A program made the translations under genes and the position numbers. The notes under the pieces were generated by a model that worked only from the letters and a program-made list of their open reading frames with translations, was not told the DNA's origin and did no database searches. A stretch of 64,000 nt of DNA from an uncultured Actinomycetota bacterium (GTDB lineage: Bacteria > Actinomycetota > Actinomycetes > JACCUZ01): positions 217,835 to 281,834 of the forward strand of contig CAWHJC010000021.1 of assembly GCA_963829565.1 (NCBI GenBank), written 5' to 3'. Position 1 is the first letter of the stretch. The number at the start of each line of letters is the position of its first letter. Of the stretch, positions 35,387-42,503 are shown one piece after another.

Positions 35387-36325
35387 TTACTGCGCGAGCT
35401 CCCCGGCGAGCCGGTCGCGGCGAGCCGTGACGTCGGCCAGGCGCCGCTCGGCGTCGCGGGCGACCCGCTCTGCCTTCTCTGCGGCCGTCTGCGCCGTGCG
35501 TCGCTCCCGGTCGGCTCCGGCCTGCTCGTCGGTGGCTGTGGCGAGCTCGTCGCGGAGCCGGCGGACGGTGTCGGCAGCGGCCTCGGCCGCGGCGGTTGAA
35601 CGGTCCAGCCGTTCCCGGGCGTCGTCCCGGGCGGCGCCGGCGGCATCGGCGGCCTCCCGGGCGGCCGTGGCCTCCGCCTCGGCGCGCTCCAGCCGCTCGG
35701 CTCGGCGCCGGCGCTCCCTGGCCTCCGGGTCCGGGTCGGCCTTGGTGCGGCCTGCCGTCCCGCCGCCCGCCGACCGGCTCGACGGCTTCGCCGCCTTCGT
35801 CGGTTGCTTCGCCCGGGAGGTCGGAGGCGCCTGGTCACCGGTTCCCGGCGCGAACCCGGAGGGCCGGAAACCCTCCGTCAGCCGCCCCTCTGCGAGCTGC
35901 TCCGCCAGGTCCGGGTCGGCGAGCGCAGCCCGCAGCGTCTCCTCGAGACCGCGCGCCGCGTCCTCCCCCACCCGCTGGCCGGCGGCCGCCGCGCTCCGGC
36001 GGGCCTGCTTGACCAGCGCGGCCACCAGCTGGTGCTGCTGTTGGGAGAGCCGGCGCAGGTCCTCGCCGCTGAGGACCTCGGTGGCCTCGCGCAGCGCCTC
36101 GCCGAGCTCGAGCAGCGGCCCGATCTCGTCGCCGTGCTCCCGGACGAGCTGGTTGGCCAGCCAGGCGACCGTCGTCGGCTTGCCCAGCGCGTGGATCTGC
36201 TTGGCCAGGTCACGGTCGCCGTCTGCGCGTGCCTCCTTCTCCCGGGCCGTACGCGTGGCAGTGAACTCGGCGGGCAGCAGCCCGTAGAGCTCGTCGGCGA
36301 CGGTGTCGAGTGTGGGCATGTCCAC
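35387..36325 (-). CDS. Conserved hypothetical protein with C-terminal coiled coil
   Basis: VADELYGLLPAEFTATR..LGKPTTVAWLANQLVR; host-like codon usage. Confidence 0.7.
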   Translation of the reverse strand: MDMPTLDTVADELYGLLPAEFTATRTAREKEARADGDRDLAKQIHALGKPTTVAWLANQLVREHGDEIGPLLELGEALREATEVLSGEDLRRLSQQQHQLVAALVKQARRSAAAAGQRVGEDAARGLEETLRAALADPDLAEQLAEGRLTEGFRPSGFAPGTGDQAPPTSRAKQPTKAAKPSSRSAGGGTAGRTKADPDPEARERRRRAERLERAEAEATAAREAADAAGAARDDARERLDRSTAAAEAAADTVRRLRDELATATDEQAGADRERRTAQTAAEKAERVARDAERRLADVTARRDRLAGELAQ

Positions 36326-36364
36326 GGTGTGCGCATTCTGCCGCGCCGGTGGCGCGGCTGTCCG

Positions 36365-36805
36365 TCAGCGCGCCGCGGATCCGTCGACAAGCGACGGTGG
36401 CAGTCGCAGCCCGGGCACCAGCTCGGTGAGCAGGGTCCGCACCCGTCGGTCGATGTCGGCGACGATCCGACGTACGGTCGCCTCGTCCTGACCCTTGGGG
36501 TCGTCGAGCTCCCAGTCCTCGTAGCGCGCGCCCGCGTAGAACGGGCACTCCTCGCCGCACCCCATCGTCACGACGGCGCTGTAGCTGCCGTCCGGGTCGA
36601 ACCGCTTCGGGGTCTCCTGCCCGGTGTCGAGACCCAGGGCGGCGAGGACCGATGCGACCTCGGGATGCACGCGGTCGCCGGGCTCGGACCCGGCGGAGAA
36701 CACCTCGACCCGGTCGCCGCCGTAGTGCTCGGCCAGGACCTTGCCAGTCACCGACCGACCGGCGTTGGCGCGGCAGGCGAAGAGGATCCTGGGCTTGTCG
36801 GGCAC
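36365..36805 (-). CDS. arsC: Arsenate reductase, LMW-PTP fold, three-Cys type
   Basis: ILFACRANAGRS, SAGSEP, TMGCGEECP, DWELDDP. Confidence 0.9.
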   Translation of the reverse strand: MPDKPRILFACRANAGRSVTGKVLAEHYGGDRVEVFSAGSEPGDRVHPEVASVLAALGLDTGQETPKRFDPDGSYSAVVTMGCGEECPFYAGARYEDWELDDPKGQDEATVRRIVADIDRRVRTLLTELVPGLRLPPSLVDGSAAR

Positions 36806-37515
36806 GGCGGTGCTCCTTCGGCGGAAGCGGGCGCGAGCGGGTAGAGAGCGGTGACGAGCGCGACGCCGAGGATGCCGCCGAGGATCTCGGCGATGACGAA
36901 CGCCGGCACCGATGCCGGGGTGATGCCGGCGAAGGTGTCCGACACGGCGCGCCCGACCGTCACGGCCGGGTTGGCGAACGACGTCGACGACGTGAACCAG
37001 TAAGCAGCGCCGATGTAGGCGCCGACGGCGGGCCCGGCCCAGACGCCGCGCCGGGTGCGGACAAGCGAGAAGACCAGGGCCACCAGGCCGGCGGTGGCGA
37101 CGACCTCCCCGAGCCAGAGCCGCCAACCGACGCGGTCCGTCGTGGCAAGTGCGGTGGGGACGTCGAACATCACGTTCGCGAGAACCGCTCCGGCAAGGGC
37201 GCCGACCGTCTGGACGGCCGCGTAGCCCGCGACCTCCCGGCCGCGCAGCCCGCTGCCGCTGTGCCGACCGAGCCACCAGTCGGCAGCCGACACGACCGGA
37301 TTGAGATGCGCGCCGGAGACCGGACCGAGCATGACGATGAGGGCGCCGAGGCCTAGGGCCGTCGCCGTCGAGTTCTGCAGCAGCTGGAGGCCCGTGTCGT
37401 CCGGCGAGAGCCGTTGCGCGGCGATGCCAGACCCGACGACGACCGTCACGAGAAGCGCTGTCCCGACACCCTCGGCGAGCAGCCGGCGAGCCGGCGCGCG
37501 GTCTCCCGTCAGCAC
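36748..37515 (-). CDS. Aquaglyceroporin AqpS-like arsenite channel (3' end possibly frameshifted)
   Basis: AEGVGTALL..VVGSGI, SGAHLNPVVS, AYWFTSSTSFANPAVT. Confidence 0.88.
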   Translation of the reverse strand: MLTGDRAPARRLLAEGVGTALLVTVVVGSGIAAQRLSPDDTGLQLLQNSTATALGLGALIVMLGPVSGAHLNPVVSAADWWLGRHSGSGLRGREVAGYAAVQTVGALAGAVLANVMFDVPTALATTDRVGWRLWLGEVVATAGLVALVFSLVRTRRGVWAGPAVGAYIGAAYWFTSSTSFANPAVTVGRAVSDTFAGITPASVPAFVIAEILGGILGVALVTALYPLAPASAEGAPPCPTSPGSSSPAAPTPVGR

Positions 37516-37859
37516 GGTCGGCGCGTCCGCTCGGCGTCGCAGGCGTCAGCCAGACCGGCGACCGCGTCCCGAACGGCTGCGATCGCGCCCGCCGAGAGCC
37601 GGTAGTAGGTGAATCGTCCGGCCGGGTCGCTCTCGACCAGGCCGGCCTCCCGCAGGGCCCTGAGGTGGTGGGAGACGAGCGTCTGCTTGATCCCGAGCTC
37701 GTCCTGGAGGTGGCAGACGCACAGGTCCTCGGCGGCGAGCAGGTCGAGGATCGCGGCACGGACCGGGTCGGCGAGCACCCGCAGGGTCGGGGCTGCGTCA
37801 GCGAGCGGAGACGGCGACGGCGACGGCCGGGTCCGGGAGAACGTCACATCGGTGGGCAT
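37509..37859 (-). CDS. arsR: ArsR/SmtB regulator
   Basis: LADPVR, LCVCHL, QTLVSHHLRALREAGLV, C-terminal RRPC. Confidence 0.9.
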   Translation of the reverse strand: MPTDVTFSRTRPSPSPSPLADAAPTLRVLADPVRAAILDLLAAEDLCVCHLQDELGIKQTLVSHHLRALREAGLVESDPAGRFTYYRLSAGAIAAVRDAVAGLADACDAERTRRPC

Positions 37860-37872
37860 CGTGGTCAGGACA

Positions 37873-37890
37873 CACCAGCGACGGCTGATG
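37873..37890. promoter_or_regulatory. Putative ArsR operator of arsR-aqpS-arsC
   Basis: Imperfect inverted repeat CACCAGC-GACG-GCTGATG just upstream of the arsR ATG. Confidence 0.6.
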
Positions 37891-37960
37891 AGTCAATCCC
37901 GGCGGAGGGACCCCCGGCCCACGCTTCCACCTCTCACCACCCACCTCCCACCTCCCACCA

Positions 37961-38015
37961 CCGAAGCGGACCGGCTACCGGGCGCGACACGCCGTCGCTA
38001 GCCGGTCCACTTCGG
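37961..38015. repeat. Long hairpin (17-bp arms), REP-like or terminator
   Basis: CCGAAGCGGACCGGCTA ... TAGCCGGTCCACTTCGG with an inner GCGAC/GTCGC stem. Confidence 0.7.
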
Positions 38016-38050
38016 CGTGTTGCGGTGGTGCCATCGGCTGCGCTCAGGAC

Positions 38051-38092
38051 TCAGCAACACCCGGTGTCGCAGCTCTCGCAGCAGTCGTCCAT
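38051..38092 (-). CDS. 13-aa Cys-rich micropeptide MDDCCESCDTGCC
   Basis: GGAGGGAGGTGA RBS 6 nt before ATG; 5 Cys and 4 acidic residues; lies in the arsenic cluster. Confidence 0.7.
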   Translation of the reverse strand: MDDCCESCDTGCC

Positions 38093-38133
38093 GGCAGGTC
38101 ACCTCCCTCCGCTCGCGGTGGCGGACAGCGGTC

Positions 38134-38214
38134 TCAGCCGCCCCCAGCGAGGCCGGGAAGGCCGGCGCCGATGACGGCGACTGACTCGACGACGGACTCC
38201 GAGCGGCGGCCCAT
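38134..38214 (-). pseudogene. 26-aa N-terminal remnant of an FAD-dependent oxidoreductase
   Basis: MGRRSESVVESVAVIGAGLPGLAGGG* has a Rossmann VAVIGxGxxG motif; TGATG-coupled to the upstream ORF. Confidence 0.5.
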
Positions 38215-38429
38215 CAGCAGGTGGGGCAGGGCTGGCCGCGCTGGGCGGAGGCGGACGGGGTCACGGACTCCAGCGTCTCGCGCAAGGCGGTGGCCAGCCG
38301 GCCGGGGAGCACCCGGGTCCGGCGGCGGCCGACTTCGCGGCCGAGGCGCTCGGCGGCCACGTCGCGGCGCAGCTCCTCCATCCGCAGGTGGATGGTCGCG
38401 GCCAGCGGGTCGAGCGGAAGGCTGCTCAT
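38214..38429 (-). CDS. 71-aa hypothetical protein ending in CPTC
   Basis: GAGGAG RBS; MSSLPLDPLAATIHLRMEELRRDV...GQPCPTC*; divergent from the second ArsR. Confidence 0.65.
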   Translation of the reverse strand: MSSLPLDPLAATIHLRMEELRRDVAAERLGREVGRRRTRVLPGRLATALRETLESVTPSASAQRGQPCPTC

Positions 38430-38446
38430 GACGGGCTCCTCAGGAG

Positions 38447-38518
38447 ATCGATGGTTCTCGATAACTCGGTCATCGTGGCCGACGTATCGACGGCTGTCAA
38501 TGATTGACGGCCGTCTAT
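38447..38518. promoter_or_regulatory. Three 16-bp ArsR-type operator boxes
   Basis: ATCGATGGTTCTCGAT (38447-38462), ATCGACGGCTGTCAAT (38486-38501), ATTGACGGCCGTCTAT (38503-38518). Confidence 0.7.
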
Positions 38519-38538
38519 TTCGACCGCATGATGGAGCC

Positions 38539-38895
38539 ATGCCCAAGCCGCTGCCGCTTCTCGAGCCCGTCCCCAGCGCCGACACCTGCTGCGCGCCGCT
38601 GGCCGAGGCGCCGCTCTCAGCGGGCGAGGCCCAACAGCTGTCGATCCGGCTCAAGGCGCTCGCGGACCCGGCCCGGCTGCGGTTGGTCTCGATGCTGCTG
38701 GCCAGCGCCTCGCAGGAGTGCTGCACCTGCGACCTGACCGAGCCGCTGGGCCTGTCCCAGCCGACGGTCAGCCACCACCTGAAGAAGCTGGCCGAGGCAG
38801 GGATCGTCACTGGCGAGCGTCGCGGCGTCTGGACCCACTACCGCGTCGTGCCCGGCTCCCTCGCCGCGATCGCCGACGTCATCACCACCCCCTGA
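38539..38895 (+). CDS. ArsR regulator with N-terminal CC (Rv2640c-like)
   Basis: DTCCAPL, LKALADPARLRL, ECCTCDL..LSQPTVSHHLKKL. Confidence 0.9.
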   Translation: MPKPLPLLEPVPSADTCCAPLAEAPLSAGEAQQLSIRLKALADPARLRLVSMLLASASQECCTCDLTEPLGLSQPTVSHHLKKLAEAGIVTGERRGVWTHYRVVPGSLAAIADVITTP

Positions 38896-38899
38896 CGAA

Positions 38900-38962
38900 G
38901 ATCCACTGTGCGTTGACACACCAGTTCACCGGCGTGTCTGGTGCAGCAGCGCACAGTGGATC
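38900..38962. repeat. REP-like palindromic intergenic repeat, copy 2
   Basis: 13-bp arms GATCCACTGTGCG ... CGCACAGTGGATC; homologous to 18538-18596; lies between convergent genes. Confidence 0.8.
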
Positions 38963-38985
38963 TTGGGGGTGGGTTGCCGGGCGGG

Positions 38986-39519
38986 TCAGGCTGCCGCGCG
39001 GCCGCCGGGGGTCACGACCAGCCACACGCCGCCGTACTCGCGTACGTCGTGGCAGAGCACCTGGCCCGGCCCCTCGTGGGCGTAGAAGTAGAGCGGGTGA
39101 CCGGCATAGGTGACCTGGGTGGTGCCGTCGCGGCGCTCGGTCCTGCCGAGCAGCCCGGCCCGCGCGTCGCCCTTCGCCCGTGGTGAGCCTGTCGTGAGGA
39201 CCGGCGGCCACGCCTCGGCGCACTCGCCGTAGCACTCCGGCCGGTCACCGCCTTCCTTGTCGAAGAGGTAGATGGCCTGGCCGGTCGGGTCGAACAGCAT
39301 CGTCCCGAAGTCGCTGGCACCGGTGGTGATCACCCGGCCGCGGCCCTCAGCGGCAGCGCTCGGCGACTCGCTGGCCGGAGCCGACGTGGTCGTCCCGGTC
39401 GGGCTGGACGAGCCAGTGGAGGCCGGTGTCGGCGACGTTCCCGCCGAGTCGTCGGCGGTGGAGCCACCTCCGCAGCCGGCGAGCAGCAAGGAGACCGCGA
39501 GGAGTGCGGTACGAGTCAT
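38986..39519 (-). CDS. Secreted repeat lipoprotein (COG4315/Lipoprotein_15)
   Basis: Lipobox LAGC, YLFDKE, CYGECAEAWPP, QVTYAGHPLY. Confidence 0.85.
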   Translation of the reverse strand: MTRTALLAVSLLLAGCGGGSTADDSAGTSPTPASTGSSSPTGTTTSAPASESPSAAAEGRGRVITTGASDFGTMLFDPTGQAIYLFDKEGGDRPECYGECAEAWPPVLTTGSPRAKGDARAGLLGRTERRDGTTQVTYAGHPLYFYAHEGPGQVLCHDVREYGGVWLVVTPGGRAAA

Positions 39520-40649
39520 GCCGAGCCGACCGGCCCGCCGCGCACCGGCTTGTCCTGCGCCGTGCGCCGCTCGTTGTCGCGCAGCCGCGGCTCGTAGTGG
39601 GTGAAGAAGACGGTGGCGACGAGATCCCGTCGGCTGCGTACGCCCGTCTTGTCGAAGATGCTCTTCAGGTGCTGCTGGACGGTGTGCGGTGACACGGTCA
39701 GCGTCCCGGCGATGTCCGTTGTGCACGCGCCCTGCAGGACCAGCCGGGTCACGTCGCGTTCCCGTTCAGTGAGTCCATAGGCAGACATGAGCAGGGCGGT
39801 GATGCGGGCCGGGTGCGCCGGCTCGACGATGACGGCTACCCGCCGGTCGCCTCCCGACAGGAGCGCGGCGCCGTGCAGCACCACCCAGGTCCCCGAGCGC
39901 GTCAGCACGCGGGCCATCGCCACCTCGGCCGGCGCCCCGTCCTCGACCGGGCGCATCGCCCGACCGGCGACTGTCAGCACGACGGACGGCAGCCGGCCCG
40001 CATCGATGTCTCCGTCCGGCAGATCGCGCAGCCATGTGTCCACACCCGGTGTCGAGGACTCGACCTGCCAGTCGTCCCGCAGCACGAGCAGCCCCGGCGC
40101 CTGGCCGTCCTCGGGGTCACTCGCCTCCCCGAACAGAAGAGCTCGCCGGGCGCCTTCCGCGAGGTGCGGCGCGGCCTGCGCGATGAAGTGCTGGTCGGCG
40201 GCACCGAAGAGCGGCCGGTCCGCCTCGCGGTAGAGGCCCAGCGCCCCCCAGACGTCACCGGAGCGGGTCCGGAGCACCGCGATCATCTCCTGGTCTCCGC
40301 CGAGCGCGATGTTGGCCTGCCACCGGGGACTGCTGCTCGGGTCTCCGCCCGTGGCGTCGTGCAGCGTCGAGACACCCGTGCTGCTGCGCGCCACGTCGAC
40401 GATCTGGTTCACGTCGTCGCCGTAGTACTCCTCGGCCAGCGACTCGCGGGGCAGCTCCGGCATCTCCGGGTTGTAGTGGCTGGTGATGAGAAGTGATGCC
40501 GGGTCGAGGGTGTACCAGCACGGGAATCCGAAGTGCGGCACCACCTGGTCCAGGACGTCGGCGGCCTCGGTCCAGAACGTCACCAGGCTGCGGGGCTCTT
40601 CGGACAACCGCTCGATCTTGTCCAGCGCCCGCGTCGCCGATACCGCCAT
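39516..40649 (-). CDS. GAF-like sensor plus LuxR-type HTH regulator
   Basis: TLDPASLLIT, YGLTERERDV..IAGTLTVSPHTVQQHLKSIFDKTGVRSRR. Confidence 0.85.
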   Translation of the reverse strand: MAVSATRALDKIERLSEEPRSLVTFWTEAADVLDQVVPHFGFPCWYTLDPASLLITSHYNPEMPELPRESLAEEYYGDDVNQIVDVARSSTGVSTLHDATGGDPSSSPRWQANIALGGDQEMIAVLRTRSGDVWGALGLYREADRPLFGAADQHFIAQAAPHLAEGARRALLFGEASDPEDGQAPGLLVLRDDWQVESSTPGVDTWLRDLPDGDIDAGRLPSVVLTVAGRAMRPVEDGAPAEVAMARVLTRSGTWVVLHGAALLSGGDRRVAVIVEPAHPARITALLMSAYGLTERERDVTRLVLQGACTTDIAGTLTVSPHTVQQHLKSIFDKTGVRSRRDLVATVFFTHYEPRLRDNERRTAQDKPVRGGPVGSA

Positions 40650-40759
40650 GTCCGCACTGTCCCACCGACCTCCGGTCCTGGCGATACCACCTTTCTGGAA
40701 TGGTCGCCGTCGTCGTGCGGTCCTAGCGTCCCCGTCATCGCCAACCGGAAGGACCGACG

Positions 40760-41245
40760 ATGACCACGACGAGCCTGCGAGTCCACAGCCTGGAGACTCC
40801 CGGACCTGACCAGATGGGCGTCACCGATCAGTTCCTGATCGACGGTGACGACACCGGTGGCCGCTTCGCCCTGGTCCAGCACCTGTTCGCTCCGCGGGCT
40901 CTGGCCGCCCCGATGCACCGCCACCACGAGGAGGACGAGTTCACGCTCGTCCTGACCGGGCGGATCGGCGCCGTCCTCGACGGCAACGAGATCGTCGCCG
41001 GCCCCGGAGAGCTGCTCTTCAAGCCGCGCGAACAGTGGCACACGTTCTGGAACGCCGGCGACGAACCCGCGACCTGCCTCGAGATCATCTCGCCGGCCGG
41101 GCTGGAGCAGCTGTTCCGGGCCTTGGCCCAGGTCGGCGAGGCGACCACACCCGAGGACCTGGCGCGGCGCGCCAGGCCCTACAACTGCGACGTCGACATG
41201 GACGCGACCGCAGCGGTCATCGGGCGGCACGGCGTGGAGTTCTGA
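40760..41245 (+). CDS. Cupin domain protein
   Basis: PMHRHHEEDE..VLTG, KPREQWHTFWN. Confidence 0.85.
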   Translation: MTTTSLRVHSLETPGPDQMGVTDQFLIDGDDTGGRFALVQHLFAPRALAAPMHRHHEEDEFTLVLTGRIGAVLDGNEIVAGPGELLFKPREQWHTFWNAGDEPATCLEIISPAGLEQLFRALAQVGEATTPEDLARRARPYNCDVDMDATAAVIGRHGVEF

Positions 41246-41248
41246 CCC

Positions 41249-41566
41249 GTGCCCGGCGCCTCGTCGCCCGAAGAGCTCGAGACGCTCCTCGAGGACGCCG
41301 TGCTGCTGCAAGACGACCGAGCCGTCGCAGACCTCTTCGAGAGCAACGGTGTCGTGGTCCGTGTGCCGAGCCGGGTGACCGGTCGGAGCCGGGCTGGAAG
41401 CGTGCTCGTCCGGGAAGGGTTCGTCGCATCGGTCCGGTCGGTGACGGTGGTGCACGACGTCGCCGTGGTCGTCGGGCAGCGGACGGTCAACGTCTCCGGC
41501 CGGCGCCCGGACCACACCTGGCGACTGCTGGCGACGGTCGTGATGCCGTCGTCACCAGGTGCGTGA
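41249..41566 (+). CDS. Small hypothetical protein (possibly NTF2/SnoaL-like)
   Basis: GASSPEELETLLEDA..ADLFE..RRPDHTWR; starts 3 nt after the cupin stop. Confidence 0.5.
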   Translation: MPGASSPEELETLLEDAVLLQDDRAVADLFESNGVVVRVPSRVTGRSRAGSVLVREGFVASVRSVTVVHDVAVVVGQRTVNVSGRRPDHTWRLLATVVMPSSPGA

Positions 41567-41573
41567 CCGGGCC

Positions 41574-42503
41574 TCAGGCGTGGGTCGGGTGCTCGTGGTC
41601 GCCGTGGCCGGCGGCCTCGAGCTGGAACGTCGAGTGCTCGACGGAGACACCGTGGTGGGAGGCGACGCACTGCTGGAGCTGGTCGAGGATCTGGGGTGCG
41701 TGCCCGTCGTGGAAGCAGCCGTCGTCCACCACGACGTGTGCGCTGAGCACCGGCAGGTTCGACGCGACCTGGGACGCGTGGAGGTCGTGCACGTCGAGAA
41801 CATGCGGCAGGTCGAGGATGTGCGCCCGGACGCCGTCGAGGTCGAGCCCTTTCGGGGTCGCTTCCAGTAGGACGTCCACCGTCTCGCGCAGCAGCCGCCA
41901 GGTGCGCGGCAGGATCAGCGCGCCGATGAGCAGGGAGGCGACCGCGTCGGCGCGCTGCCAGCCGAACACCGCGATGCACGCCGCCGCGACGAGGACCGCG
42001 ACCGAGCCGAGCGCGTCGTTGACGACTTCGAGGAAAGCGGCCCGCATGTTCATGTTCTTCGTACGGGACGAGGCGAGCACGCCGATCGCGGCGATGTTCC
42101 CGACCAGGCCGACGATGCCGAACACGAGCATCGCCGTGGAGGCGACCTCGGGAGGATCGAGCAGCCGGCGGGCGCCTTCGACGAGGACGAAGACGCCCAC
42201 GGCGAGCAGCACCGCCGCCTGTGCGGCGGCGGCGAGAACCTCGGCCCGCCGGTAGCCCCAGGTGCGTTGCGGCGTCGCGGGCCGCTGGGCGAGGACGGCG
42301 GCGCCAAGCGCAAGCGTCAGGCCGGCAGCGTCGGTCAGGGCGTGCCCGGCGTCGGCGAGCAGCGCGAGCGATCCGGAGACAGCCGCCCCGACGACCTCGA
42401 CGAGCAGCGCAACCGTCGTGATGGCCAACACCAGCGCGAGCCTGCGCCGGTCGCCGGCACCGCCGGAGGGTCCGTGGTCGTGGTCGTGTCCACCGGGCAG
42501 CAC
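41574..42503 (-). CDS. Cation diffusion facilitator (CzcD-like)
   Basis: His-rich N-terminus, SLALLADAGHALTD, NMRAAFLEVVND, VHDLH. Confidence 0.92.
   Translation of the reverse strand: MLPGGHDHDHGPSGGAGDRRRLALVLAITTVALLVEVVGAAVSGSLALLADAGHALTDAAGLTLALGAAVLAQRPATPQRTWGYRRAEVLAAAAQAAVLLAVGVFVLVEGARRLLDPPEVASTAMLVFGIVGLVGNIAAIGVLASSRTKNMNMRAAFLEVVNDALGSVAVLVAAACIAVFGWQRADAVASLLIGALILPRTWRLLRETVDVLLEATPKGLDLDGVRAHILDLPHVLDVHDLHASQVASNLPVLSAHVVVDDGCFHDGHAPQILDQLQQCVASHHGVSVEHSTFQLEAAGHGDHEHPTHA

Follow-up and report, generated by a model that had tools for sequence, protein, structure and literature searches.

A gene of 42 nucleotides (nt) in the arsenic cluster of an uncultured Actinomycetota bacterium encodes a cysteine-rich peptide of 13 residues. 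It lies on the minus strand of a 64,000-nt stretch of contig CAWHJC010000021.1 (GenBank assembly GCA_963829565.1), and the whole of that stretch is called the window here. The same short open reading frame (ORF), termed the micro-ORF, was found at 52 loci, 50 of them non-duplicate and none from an unpublished genome. A preliminary description of the window had proposed an unannotated micropeptide gene in the arsenic cluster, and these loci show such a gene to be genuine and conserved. That the 13-codon micro-gene is real can be held with high confidence. For its product, chemistry and gene context favor, at moderate confidence, a ribosomally made, thiol-rich micro-protein of the ars regulon that binds As(III) or organoarsenicals.

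The window's micro-ORF has 13 sense codons and encodes MDDCCESCDTGCC. Five residues are Cys, arranged as a pair, a single residue and a second pair with the spacing CC-x2-C-x3-CC, and four are acidic, as the preliminary description had read from the translation. G or C occupies 12 of the 13 third-codon positions, a pattern like that of real genes in this genome of 72% GC. Upstream, the Shine-Dalgarno (SD) sequence GGAGGGAGGTGA is separated from the ATG by a 6-nt spacer (CCTGCC). Because the assembly's own 16S rRNA ends in ...GGATCACCTCCTTTCT, the core GGAGGTGA is a perfect 8-nt SD; coordinates and complementarity together confirm the 42-nt minus-strand ORF behind a strong ribosome-binding site that had been noted before. 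The core followed by 3-7 nt and ATG or GTG occurs at a single site in the window and at 31 sites in the 3.94-Mb assembly.

Taken alone, the window's micro-ORF stands weakly above chance. Both strands of the whole genome hold 36,134 ORFs of 8-25 codons, among which 447 have GGAGG at positions -16 to -4 and 21 have at least five Cys. The two features coincide in exactly one ORF, the micro-ORF, against about 0.26 expected under independence, or about a fourfold excess. Since a single ORF is so weakly distinguished, the reality of the micro-gene is judged by its conservation across genomes.

Family members were defined as M-[DNGES]0-2-CC-[DE]...CC-stop behind GGAGG, with 13-19 codons. The window's ORF, MDDCCESCDTGCC-TGA, falls within this definition, with D or E after its N-terminal CC and a stop right after its C-terminal CC. 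When the intergenic region was compared with 61 relatives by blastn, the SD and first codons were 85-97% identical in other genera and the flanks were not; a short Cys-rich ORF is present at those loci in 12 further genomes of the window's family (f1). Most search patterns demanded GGAGG or GGAGGTG. The 17-nt pattern ATGGAYGAYTGYTGYGA, which did not, matched 10 of 39 family genomes once each, its reversed control matched none, and GGAGGTG precedes all 10 matches. An SD-containing pattern run on one genome for each of 185,579 species found 10 loci, all in actinobacterial metagenome-assembled genomes (MAGs), one labeled Sporichthyaceae and one Jiangellaceae. Applied to a metagenome collection, it found 23 loci, 22 of which are ORFs of 13-19 codons ending in CC (one in CY) and a stop; the other, L079, is a long unrelated ORF and was rejected.

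A generic pattern (GGAGG, CC[D/E], CC-stop) was searched in 401 genomes from 61 families of the class. Its first version had too narrow a first gap and missed most known carriers; the widened pattern used for the final count matched 24 genomes against 1 control match. By family, the matches comprise 11 of 22 genomes in f1, 10 of 22 in f12, which is read as Jiangellaceae through its member G299 (locus L051), and 1 of 1 in f23. A match in G320 was rejected because no start lies near the SD. A profile search of the same 401 genomes with a 12-peptide alignment added two new loci (L055, L056); it was insensitive, missing the window's own genome (G000), G006, G017 and other carriers, so its 6 of 401 genomes are no distribution figure. 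Taken together, the searches place the micro-ORF in at least 20 of the 39 f1 genomes, with no single search covering all variants. Three of the carriers are unpublished: G016 and G061, without which the f1 figure is 18 of 39, and G058, the sole basis for f23.

Carriers belong to the uncultured actinobacterial family f1, to Jiangellaceae (10 of 22 sampled) and to soil metagenomes, and the micro-ORF is phylogenetically narrow, confined to few families of soil actinobacteria. The preliminary description had suggested searching actinobacterial ars loci for GGAGGTG-N5-8-ATG followed by a CC..CC ORF with conservation at the amino-acid level, and the outcome is positive. Two genomes hold two distinct copies each, G014 on contigs C75 and C187 and G284 at sites 21 kb apart on C201; the gene can be duplicated within one genome. 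Full-text literature searches returned no Cys-rich micro-ORF in ars operons, although supplementary lists of small ORFs could include relatives.

Across the 50 loci the micro-ORF has 13-19 codons, with six Cys in 43 cases and five in 7. It starts with ATG at 49 loci and GTG at 1, stops with TGA (44), TAA (4) or TAG (2), and places the stop immediately after the final Cys pair; 49 of 50 peptides end in CC and one (L067) in CY. The distance from GGAGG to the start is 8 nt in 40 loci, 9 nt in 9 and 11 nt in 1. Two Cys layouts occur, CC-x4-6-CC-x3-CC and CC-x2-3-C-x4-5-C-x3-CC, and the MDDCC start and CC-stop end share one frame despite the internal length differences; this shared frame and the occurrence of all three stop codons are signatures of coding sequence. 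Cys content is 32-40%, and 49 of the 50 peptides contain neither aromatic residues nor His, the exception being the terminal Tyr of L067.

Codon usage at the Cys positions indicates conservation of the amino acid. Among 29 distinct ORFs collected by their N-terminal pattern, the Cys columns that the pattern did not fix show synonymous TGT in 11 and a non-Cys codon (TAC) in 1. These TGC/TGT changes preserve Cys, which places Cys under purifying selection, the amino-acid-level conservation that the preliminary description had looked for. In 10 Jiangellaceae loci, conservation is 0.94 within the ORF versus 0.52 in the 60-nt flanks on both sides. Because the non-Cys residues change, selection appears to act on Cys, acidic character and length. 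Compared with the 18-codon ORF in the closest relative (G022, L031), the window's ORF lacks an in-frame stretch of 15 nt and is otherwise equal; as this deletion variant it is the shortest member, with one Cys lost, and an identical ORF is present in a metagenome contig (L074).

Further evidence comes from loci where the micro-ORF is joined to an enzyme. In L021 and L071/L080 the ArsI gene lacks both a stop codon and its own tail and continues in frame through ...GEVT(A/T)M-DDCC...CC. A protein search with this fused ArsI C-terminus returned 42 metagenomic protein clusters; 20 of the 22 fetched carry a micro-ORF-like tail, P0040 has a shorter D-CC tail and P0043 a different one. The SD-encoded residues E-V (GAGGTG) are kept in the fused tails, and the start position is retained in 21 of 21, as M in 18, V in 2 and L in 1. 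This pattern is suggestive of a retained internal start in fused ArsI, although the relatedness of the fused sequences, and their retrieval by similarity over the same stretch, keep it short of proof. Because the SD and start position persist in all 21 tails, the fused mRNAs may yield both the tailed enzyme and the free peptide. In L091 a flavoprotein likewise runs in frame into the micro-ORF. These fusions to two unrelated enzymes are Rosetta-stone evidence and therefore argue for a protein-level function beside ars enzymes. An apparent fusion to a major facilitator superfamily (MFS) protein in L092 was rejected as an off-frame of another gene.

The ArsI/CadI family offers the closest parallel to the peptide. 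In one clade the ArsI tail is the micro-ORF peptide, and the NCBIfam profile NF041414 aligns end to end over the fused tail (1-147 of 147); in other copies of ArsI, a ...CC...CC tail belongs to the enzyme itself and a separate micro-ORF comes after it. Unlike these tails, the micro-ORF is mostly free-standing with its own SD and start, and it also follows orf72, MFS and flavoprotein genes or a promoter. Own CC ends are found in ArsI (L023, L024, L029, L030, L055), orf70, the flavoprotein (L002), ArsR2 (L027) and orf62 (L055). Such ends are rare in general: CC falls within the last six residues of only 1 of 1,669 ORFs of the window's genome supported by third-position GC content (GC3). The available text of two papers on ArsI and ArsR (PMC6138428, PMC12607644) contains no statement on the role of the ArsI tail.

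Wherever the sequence suffices, the gene content of the micro-ORF unit reads as arsenic-related. An ArsI/CadI gene (NF041414, E ~1e-58) lies 36-43 nt before the micro-ORF or is fused to it in 9 of 16 genome loci, and ArsI is directly upstream in 13 of 22 metagenome loci; L060, L065, L069 and L077 have the ArsR2 promoter region alone. Of the 16 genome loci, 14 have an ArsR2-like gene in divergent orientation, as do 9 of 9 g97-type Jiangellaceae loci. Other upstream neighbors are an ArsK-like MFS gene (L031), whose stop lies inside the micro-ORF SD, and an ArsO-type Pyr_redox flavoprotein. The third alternative is a protein of about 70 residues, found in the window, L003, L028, L056, L093 and at least 7 of 9 g97-type Jiangellaceae loci.

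In the window the unit comprises a divergent arsR2 upstream and adjacent orf72, arsR, MIP and arsC genes (Table 1). The preliminary description had set arsR-aqpS-arsC downstream and three ArsR-like boxes upstream, a layout that holds; the 71-residue orf72 between the boxes and the micro-ORF was absent from it. The boxes, of the form ATCGAnGGnnnTCnAT, are presumed ArsR operators. They lie in a divergent control region of 109 nt, and the last two form a palindrome over two -35-like hexamers. One hexamer belongs to a promoter-like TTGACG-17-CATGAT at 38504-38532 on the plus strand, which ends 6 nt before the arsR2 ATG, and the other is TTGACA at 38500-38495 on the minus strand. The arsR2 mRNA is probably leaderless. 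The L023 ortholog of arsR2 matches NF041413 (8e-31, below the curated cut-off) and NF033788 (6e-29).

The first cistron, orf72, belongs to a small protein family of its own. It has a GAGGAG SD 6 nt before its ATG and a GC3 of 0.87, measured on the enclosing stop-to-stop frame. Two near homologs are hypothetical proteins. A profile search, with an alignment of 15 members, over 1.84 billion proteins returned 36 representatives, nearly all of 61-85 residues; a C-terminal CC or CxxC is present in 33 of 34 fetched proteins, and no Pfam or NCBIfam family matched orf72. The AlphaFold2 model predicts one long helix (residues 8-56) and a floppy Cys tail, with a mean predicted local distance difference test score (pLDDT) of 73. 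Judged from these sequences, orf72/orf70 form a rare family tied to the micro-ORF unit in two actinobacterial families. The closest relative is arranged differently (L002, G022:C319, against window 38178-38214): an ArsO-like flavoprotein gene comes after its orf72, and its micro-ORF lies on another contig, behind the ArsK-like MFS gene. The window and this relative are homologous up to 39 nt past the orf72 stop. Since both of the relative's genes are missing in the window, the orf72/micro-ORF junction looks like a deletion derivative that has kept orf72 and the micro-ORF with its SD.

Table 1. Positions of the micro-ORF, its signals and the surrounding arsenic genes within the 64,000-nt window.
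Feature	Position	Strand	Description
micro-ORF	38051..38092	-	ATG 38092-38090, 12 codons, TGA 38053-38051; peptide MDDCCESCDTGCC
Shine-Dalgarno GGAGGGAGGTGA	38099..38110	-	core GGAGGTGA, pairs perfectly over 8 nt with the organism's own 16S rRNA 3' end
orf72	38214..38429	-	71 residues, Arg-rich, helical, ends ...PCPTC; first cistron, before the micro-ORF
control region	38447..38518		three 16-nt boxes ATCGAnGGnnnTCnAT: 38447-62, 38486-501, 38503-18
arsR2	38539..38895	+	HTH_5 1e-16; divergent ArsR/SmtB; N-terminal CC plus CCTC; relatives of the Rv2640c-family type
hairpin	37963..38013	-	51-nt perfect stem, repeat GAAGYGGACCGG-N25-CCGGTCCRCTTC; G-rich tract to about 37915
promoter-like block TTGACT-N18-TGTCCT-N7-ATG	37860..37896	-	before arsR; would make the mRNA leaderless
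arsR (CVC type)	37509..37859	-	HTH_5 7e-16; orthologs after the micro-ORF in L031, L023, L024, L025, L029, L030
MIP/aquaglyceroporin (aqpS-like)	36748..37515	-	PF00230 2e-22
arsC, LMW-PTP type	about 36365..36790	-	PF01451 1e-12, residues 325-444 of frame 37759..36365; start approximate

Beyond this unit, the interval 39516-42503 of the window holds a LuxR-type regulator (39516-40649, minus strand), a cupin (40760-41245, plus), a weak SnoaL-like match below the Pfam cut-off (41249-41566, plus) and a CDF cation-efflux transporter (41574-42503, minus). At L037/L050/L060, which represent a Sporichthyaceae-labeled MAG and a metagenome contig, the sequence from +179 onward past the micro-ORF holds a transposase-like gene, and an insertion sequence may have interrupted the operon there.

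The mechanism we infer covers translation of the peptide, control of its transcription by arsR2, metalloid binding and the identity of the bound metal(loid). According to PMC12607644, the As(III) sensor ArsR of Corynebacterium glutamicum draws its Cys ligands from two subunits, Cys15/16 from one and Cys55 from the second. Arsenite-dependent derepression is proposed because arsR2 shares this layout. As(III) or an organoarsenical would reach the repressor, which has CC near its N-terminus and CCTC in the DNA-binding region, and cause it to leave the 16-nt boxes. Transcription would then run through orf72 and the micro-ORF and end at the hairpin, and the perfect SD would drive strong translation of an acidic peptide with five thiols.

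The peptide, in turn, would chelate trivalent arsenic in one of two ways: a vicinal pair together with a third Cys would give AsS3, and a vicinal pair would hold RAs(III). Its sequence contains two candidate AsS3 ligand sets, CC-x2-C and C-x3-CC, and PMC11212059 describes a defined AsS3 site in a model peptide of AfArsR that has 10 residues and the spacing CC-x5-C. Six-Cys relatives could hold two As(III), and a vicinal pair alone could take methyl- or aryl-As(III), which are ArsI substrates (PMC6138428, PMC12607644). As(III) released by ArsC or ArsI might thus be buffered or relayed by the peptide until it exits through the MIP channel. In effect, the peptide would be a trans-acting counterpart of the cis-acting Cys-pair tails carried by ArsI, the ArsO-like flavoprotein, orf72 and some ArsR proteins. 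It may serve mainly as a sink, as a hand-over arm for the enzymes or to damp ArsR induction.

Several points weigh against an arsenic-binding peptide. The window's short five-Cys variant occurs at two loci only, the window and L074, with identical DNA. The SD and CC codons are partly ascertained, as most patterns required the SD, the CC codons or both. Non-Cys residues vary freely, with 158 non-synonymous versus 75 synonymous pairwise codon differences among the 10 Jiangellaceae ORFs, and selection on Cys, acidity and length could also be explained by a codon-sensing element. The sole RNA trace is a 210-nt contig from a soil metatranscriptome that matches 38075-38107 (33 nt covering SD and start, 3 differences) and then diverges; the same RNA-library run holds a 177-nt arsR piece. 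As a relative's locus with possible DNA carry-over, this trace is at best a weak hint of expression. No sequencing run matched half of the region's sampled words, and the matches in DNA runs are soil, rhizosphere and groundwater contigs of relatives; uncovered stretches speak neither for nor against expression. The peptide's ligand could be As, Sb, Cd, Cu or Hg, and the upstream family carries the double name ArsI/CadI, with CadI induced by cadmium.

A bolder version of the arsenic-binding reading is offered tentatively. The micro-ORF might encode a free-standing "arsenic arm" and be the smallest dedicated metalloid-handling gene known. As a shared, diffusible counterpart of the Cys-pair tails of ars proteins, the arm would take up As(III) or methyl-As(III) released by ArsI, ArsC or the flavoprotein and hand it to orf72, ArsR or the exit channel. 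Its SD, start, six Cys and stop would then form a movable cassette, always at the 3' end of the arsR2-controlled unit and repeatedly fused to enzymes and split from them.

The best-surviving rival keeps a protein function but denies a sink: the peptide would be a trans-acting dithiol partner, a redox or hand-over arm for ArsI, the flavoprotein or orf72, comparable to an ArsD-like chaperone or relay. The in-frame fusions to two enzymes fit this idea, as do the CC tails of neighboring proteins, the position directly behind the last gene of the arsR2-controlled unit, whichever gene that is, and the pairing with one specific small protein, orf70/orf72, in Jiangellaceae and the window. It is nevertheless rather unlikely, since some units have no enzyme gene: orf70 is the only companion in at least 7 of the 9 g97-type Jiangellaceae loci, and in L022, L037/L060, L065, L069, L077 and L094 the micro-ORF sits directly behind the promoter.

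ArsD itself shows how far the comparison carries. Its Cys residues are Cys12/13/18 and the pairs 112/113 and 119/120. Like the micro-ORF, it presents vicinal Cys pairs as As(III) ligands and is encoded inside ars operons, and a hand-over role is plausible; PMC11212059 counts ArsD among AsS3 proteins. ArsD differs in being a folded protein of ~120 residues that works with the ArsA ATPase, and the 13-residue peptide has no homology to it. General scans of the neighbors revealed no arsA or arsD, no dedicated search for either having been made.

Phytochelatins, which are made enzymatically from glutathione with gamma-Glu linkages, are likewise short, thiol-rich and acidic and chelate As(III) and Cd, whereas the micro-ORF peptide is ribosomal. 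Metallothioneins such as SmtA/BmtA and MymT share more features with it: they are gene-encoded and very small, contain at least about one-third Cys in CC, CxC or CxxC motifs, and go with an ArsR/SmtB-type regulator. On composition alone the micro-ORF peptide would qualify as one (low mass, at least ~30% Cys, no aromatic residues or His, Cys motifs). Unlike them, it is acidic and lies among arsenic genes rather than Zn, Cu or Cd genes. To our knowledge, the shortest metallothioneins, those of fungi, have about 25 residues, and the micro-ORF peptide is about half that size. The window peptide is below the 20-residue minimum of the family searches; a 20-residue reading of the L027 ortholog matched 0 NCBIfam families at E<=1 and 0 Pfam families at E<=10. 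By its features, the micro-ORF would belong with gene-encoded thiol-rich metal(loid)-binding peptides or chaperones, in no curated family.

This resemblance underlies a second rival, a general soft-metal micro-metallothionein for Cd, Cu, Zn or Hg in an ArsR/SmtB unit, with arsenic not its ligand. The high Cys content, the CC and CxxC motifs and the near-complete lack of aromatic residues and His agree with it. ArsR/SmtB regulators sense many metals, the upstream family is ArsI/CadI, and the window has a CDF cation-efflux gene 3.5 kb away; moreover, the CC-x5-C peptide binds Hg(II) far more tightly than As(III) (PMC11212059). We nonetheless regard it as quite unlikely. Every identified neighbor of known role is arsenic-specific (ArsI, MIP, LMW-PTP ArsC, ArsK-like MFS), ArsI has its catalytic residues and CC pair by eye, and the peptide has no homology to any metallothionein family. 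The CC plus C arrangement of ArsR2 also matches that of ArsR from C. glutamicum, an As(III) sensor.

A third rival places the function in cis. Ribosomes pausing at the Cys codons, through depletion of Cys-tRNA or thiols or through As(III) on the nascent chain, would alter termination at the hairpin or expression of arsR-MIP. The paired Cys codons are indeed the most conserved part while other residues vary, and arsR and/or MIP genes are co-directional in the window and in L031, L023-25, L029, L030, L028, L055, L090, L094 and 8 metagenome loci. Mycobacterial polycysteine small ORFs provide a precedent: as described by Canestrari et al. (10.1101/834739), these attenuators are leaderless ORFs that open the transcripts of cysteine-metabolism operons and pair with the SD of the following gene. 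Like the micro-ORF, they are unannotated, have few codons and contain a conserved tract of consecutive Cys codons. Their hallmark of at least two consecutive Cys codons is present here, since the window's ORF has two CC pairs and its relatives have two or three; a leaderless start and control of a downstream cysteine-metabolism operon by SD pairing were not found. The micro-ORF also differs in being SD-led, the last ORF, located in arsenic operons and fused to enzymes in some genomes.

The hairpin on which such control would act has its own distribution. Its fold is very stable, with a z-score of -3.7 for the 271-nt region. Eight full copies of the repeat, counted with a strict regular expression (blastn-short and a looser expression being uninformative), occur in the window's genome, a 64%-complete assembly; all are exactly 51 nt, with a constant stem of 13 bp or more and a variable loop. 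The other copies lie at C3:245137, C8:154179, C17:307059, C17:316473, C19:319497, C19:366116 and C19:534212 of G000, and blastn finds many copies in both orientations in other genomes of the family. Rfam gave no match to the repeat, a chance miRNA at E 0.37 being the only return across 36000-40000. The element could be like a repetitive extragenic palindrome (REP) or a family-specific terminator. It may well terminate the orf72 and micro-ORF unit, yet be no device specific to the micro-ORF. Right after it, at 37915-37960 on the minus strand, runs a G-rich tract (GGTGGGAGGTGGGAGGTGGGTGGTGAGAGGTGG), with a similar run after the copy at C19:534262; the tract may belong to the element or form a G-quadruplex.

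The window's hairpin is missing from most orthologous loci. Some stable structure follows the stop in many of them, with z below -2 for the next 70 nt in 18 of 49; by eye, L003, L028, L056 and L081 have perfect GC-rich stems and L085 a stem with a T-run. In at least nine loci, however, the next gene is convergent or unrelated, namely L021/L022 (phospholipase-C-like), L051, L037/L060 (transposase-like, by eye), L027 (AlkZ-like), L082, L084, L085 and L087. The Jiangellaceae unit consists of orf70, the micro-ORF and a hairpin, and nothing more.

Expression of the downstream arsR appears to be arranged separately. A block TTGAC(C/T)-N18-T(G/C)TCCT-N7-ATG/GTG is common to the window, L031, L023, L024, L025, L029 and L030. 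It fails a sigma-70 consensus scan, and its conservation and position suggest a promoter; the arrangement points to a separate promoter and a leaderless arsR mRNA. In L023, L024, L025, L029 and L030, a 19-bp perfect palindrome of the type ACCAGCGGCGGTTGGTGTC...GACACCAACCGCCGCTGGT lies about +30 to +90 past the micro-ORF stop. It overlaps the presumed -10 and the start of arsR, occurs in a shorter form in the window, and is probably the operator of the second ArsR.

These arrangements disfavor the Cys-sensing leader acting on the hairpin that the preliminary description had offered as its alternative. The window's hairpin is a dispersed repeat, and arsR has its own promoter-like block and no SD with which a Cys tract could pair. 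The SD-led micro-ORF stands at the 3' rather than the 5' end of its unit. In many loci no further cistron comes after it, only a hairpin or a convergent gene, and it thus does not behave as a leader peptide. The enzyme fusions, moreover, make sense only for a protein-level function, and regulation in cis is accordingly very unlikely.

A chance ORF, or a decaying ArsI-tail remnant without function, is close to refuted: the SD with at least five Cys is only about fourfold over expectation in one genome and TGCTGC arises easily in off-frames of GC-rich DNA, but start, SD, frame, Cys and stop are kept at 50 non-duplicate loci in at least two families, the flanks are far less conserved, and reversed-pattern controls gave 0 and 1 matches. 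A precursor of a ribosomally synthesized and post-translationally modified peptide was also considered and rejected, as the peptide has no leader and no maturase is present among the neighbors scanned (the window, L021-L031, L055 and L002).

If the peptide binds As(III), it would be a new component of the ars system, a ribosomally made chelator or chaperone of phytochelatin size. Binding would also give a function to the unexplained Cys-pair tails of ArsI/CadI, and biosensors or bioremediation might make use of the peptide as a minimal natural sequence that binds As(III). At 13-19 codons the micro-gene is invisible to gene callers, despite the attention that ars operons have received. The orf72 family adds a second uncharacterized family to the same ars unit. 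Carriers include complete single-contig Jiangellaceae genomes, which assembly quality suggests are probably cultured isolates, making the role of the peptide in these actinobacteria directly testable.

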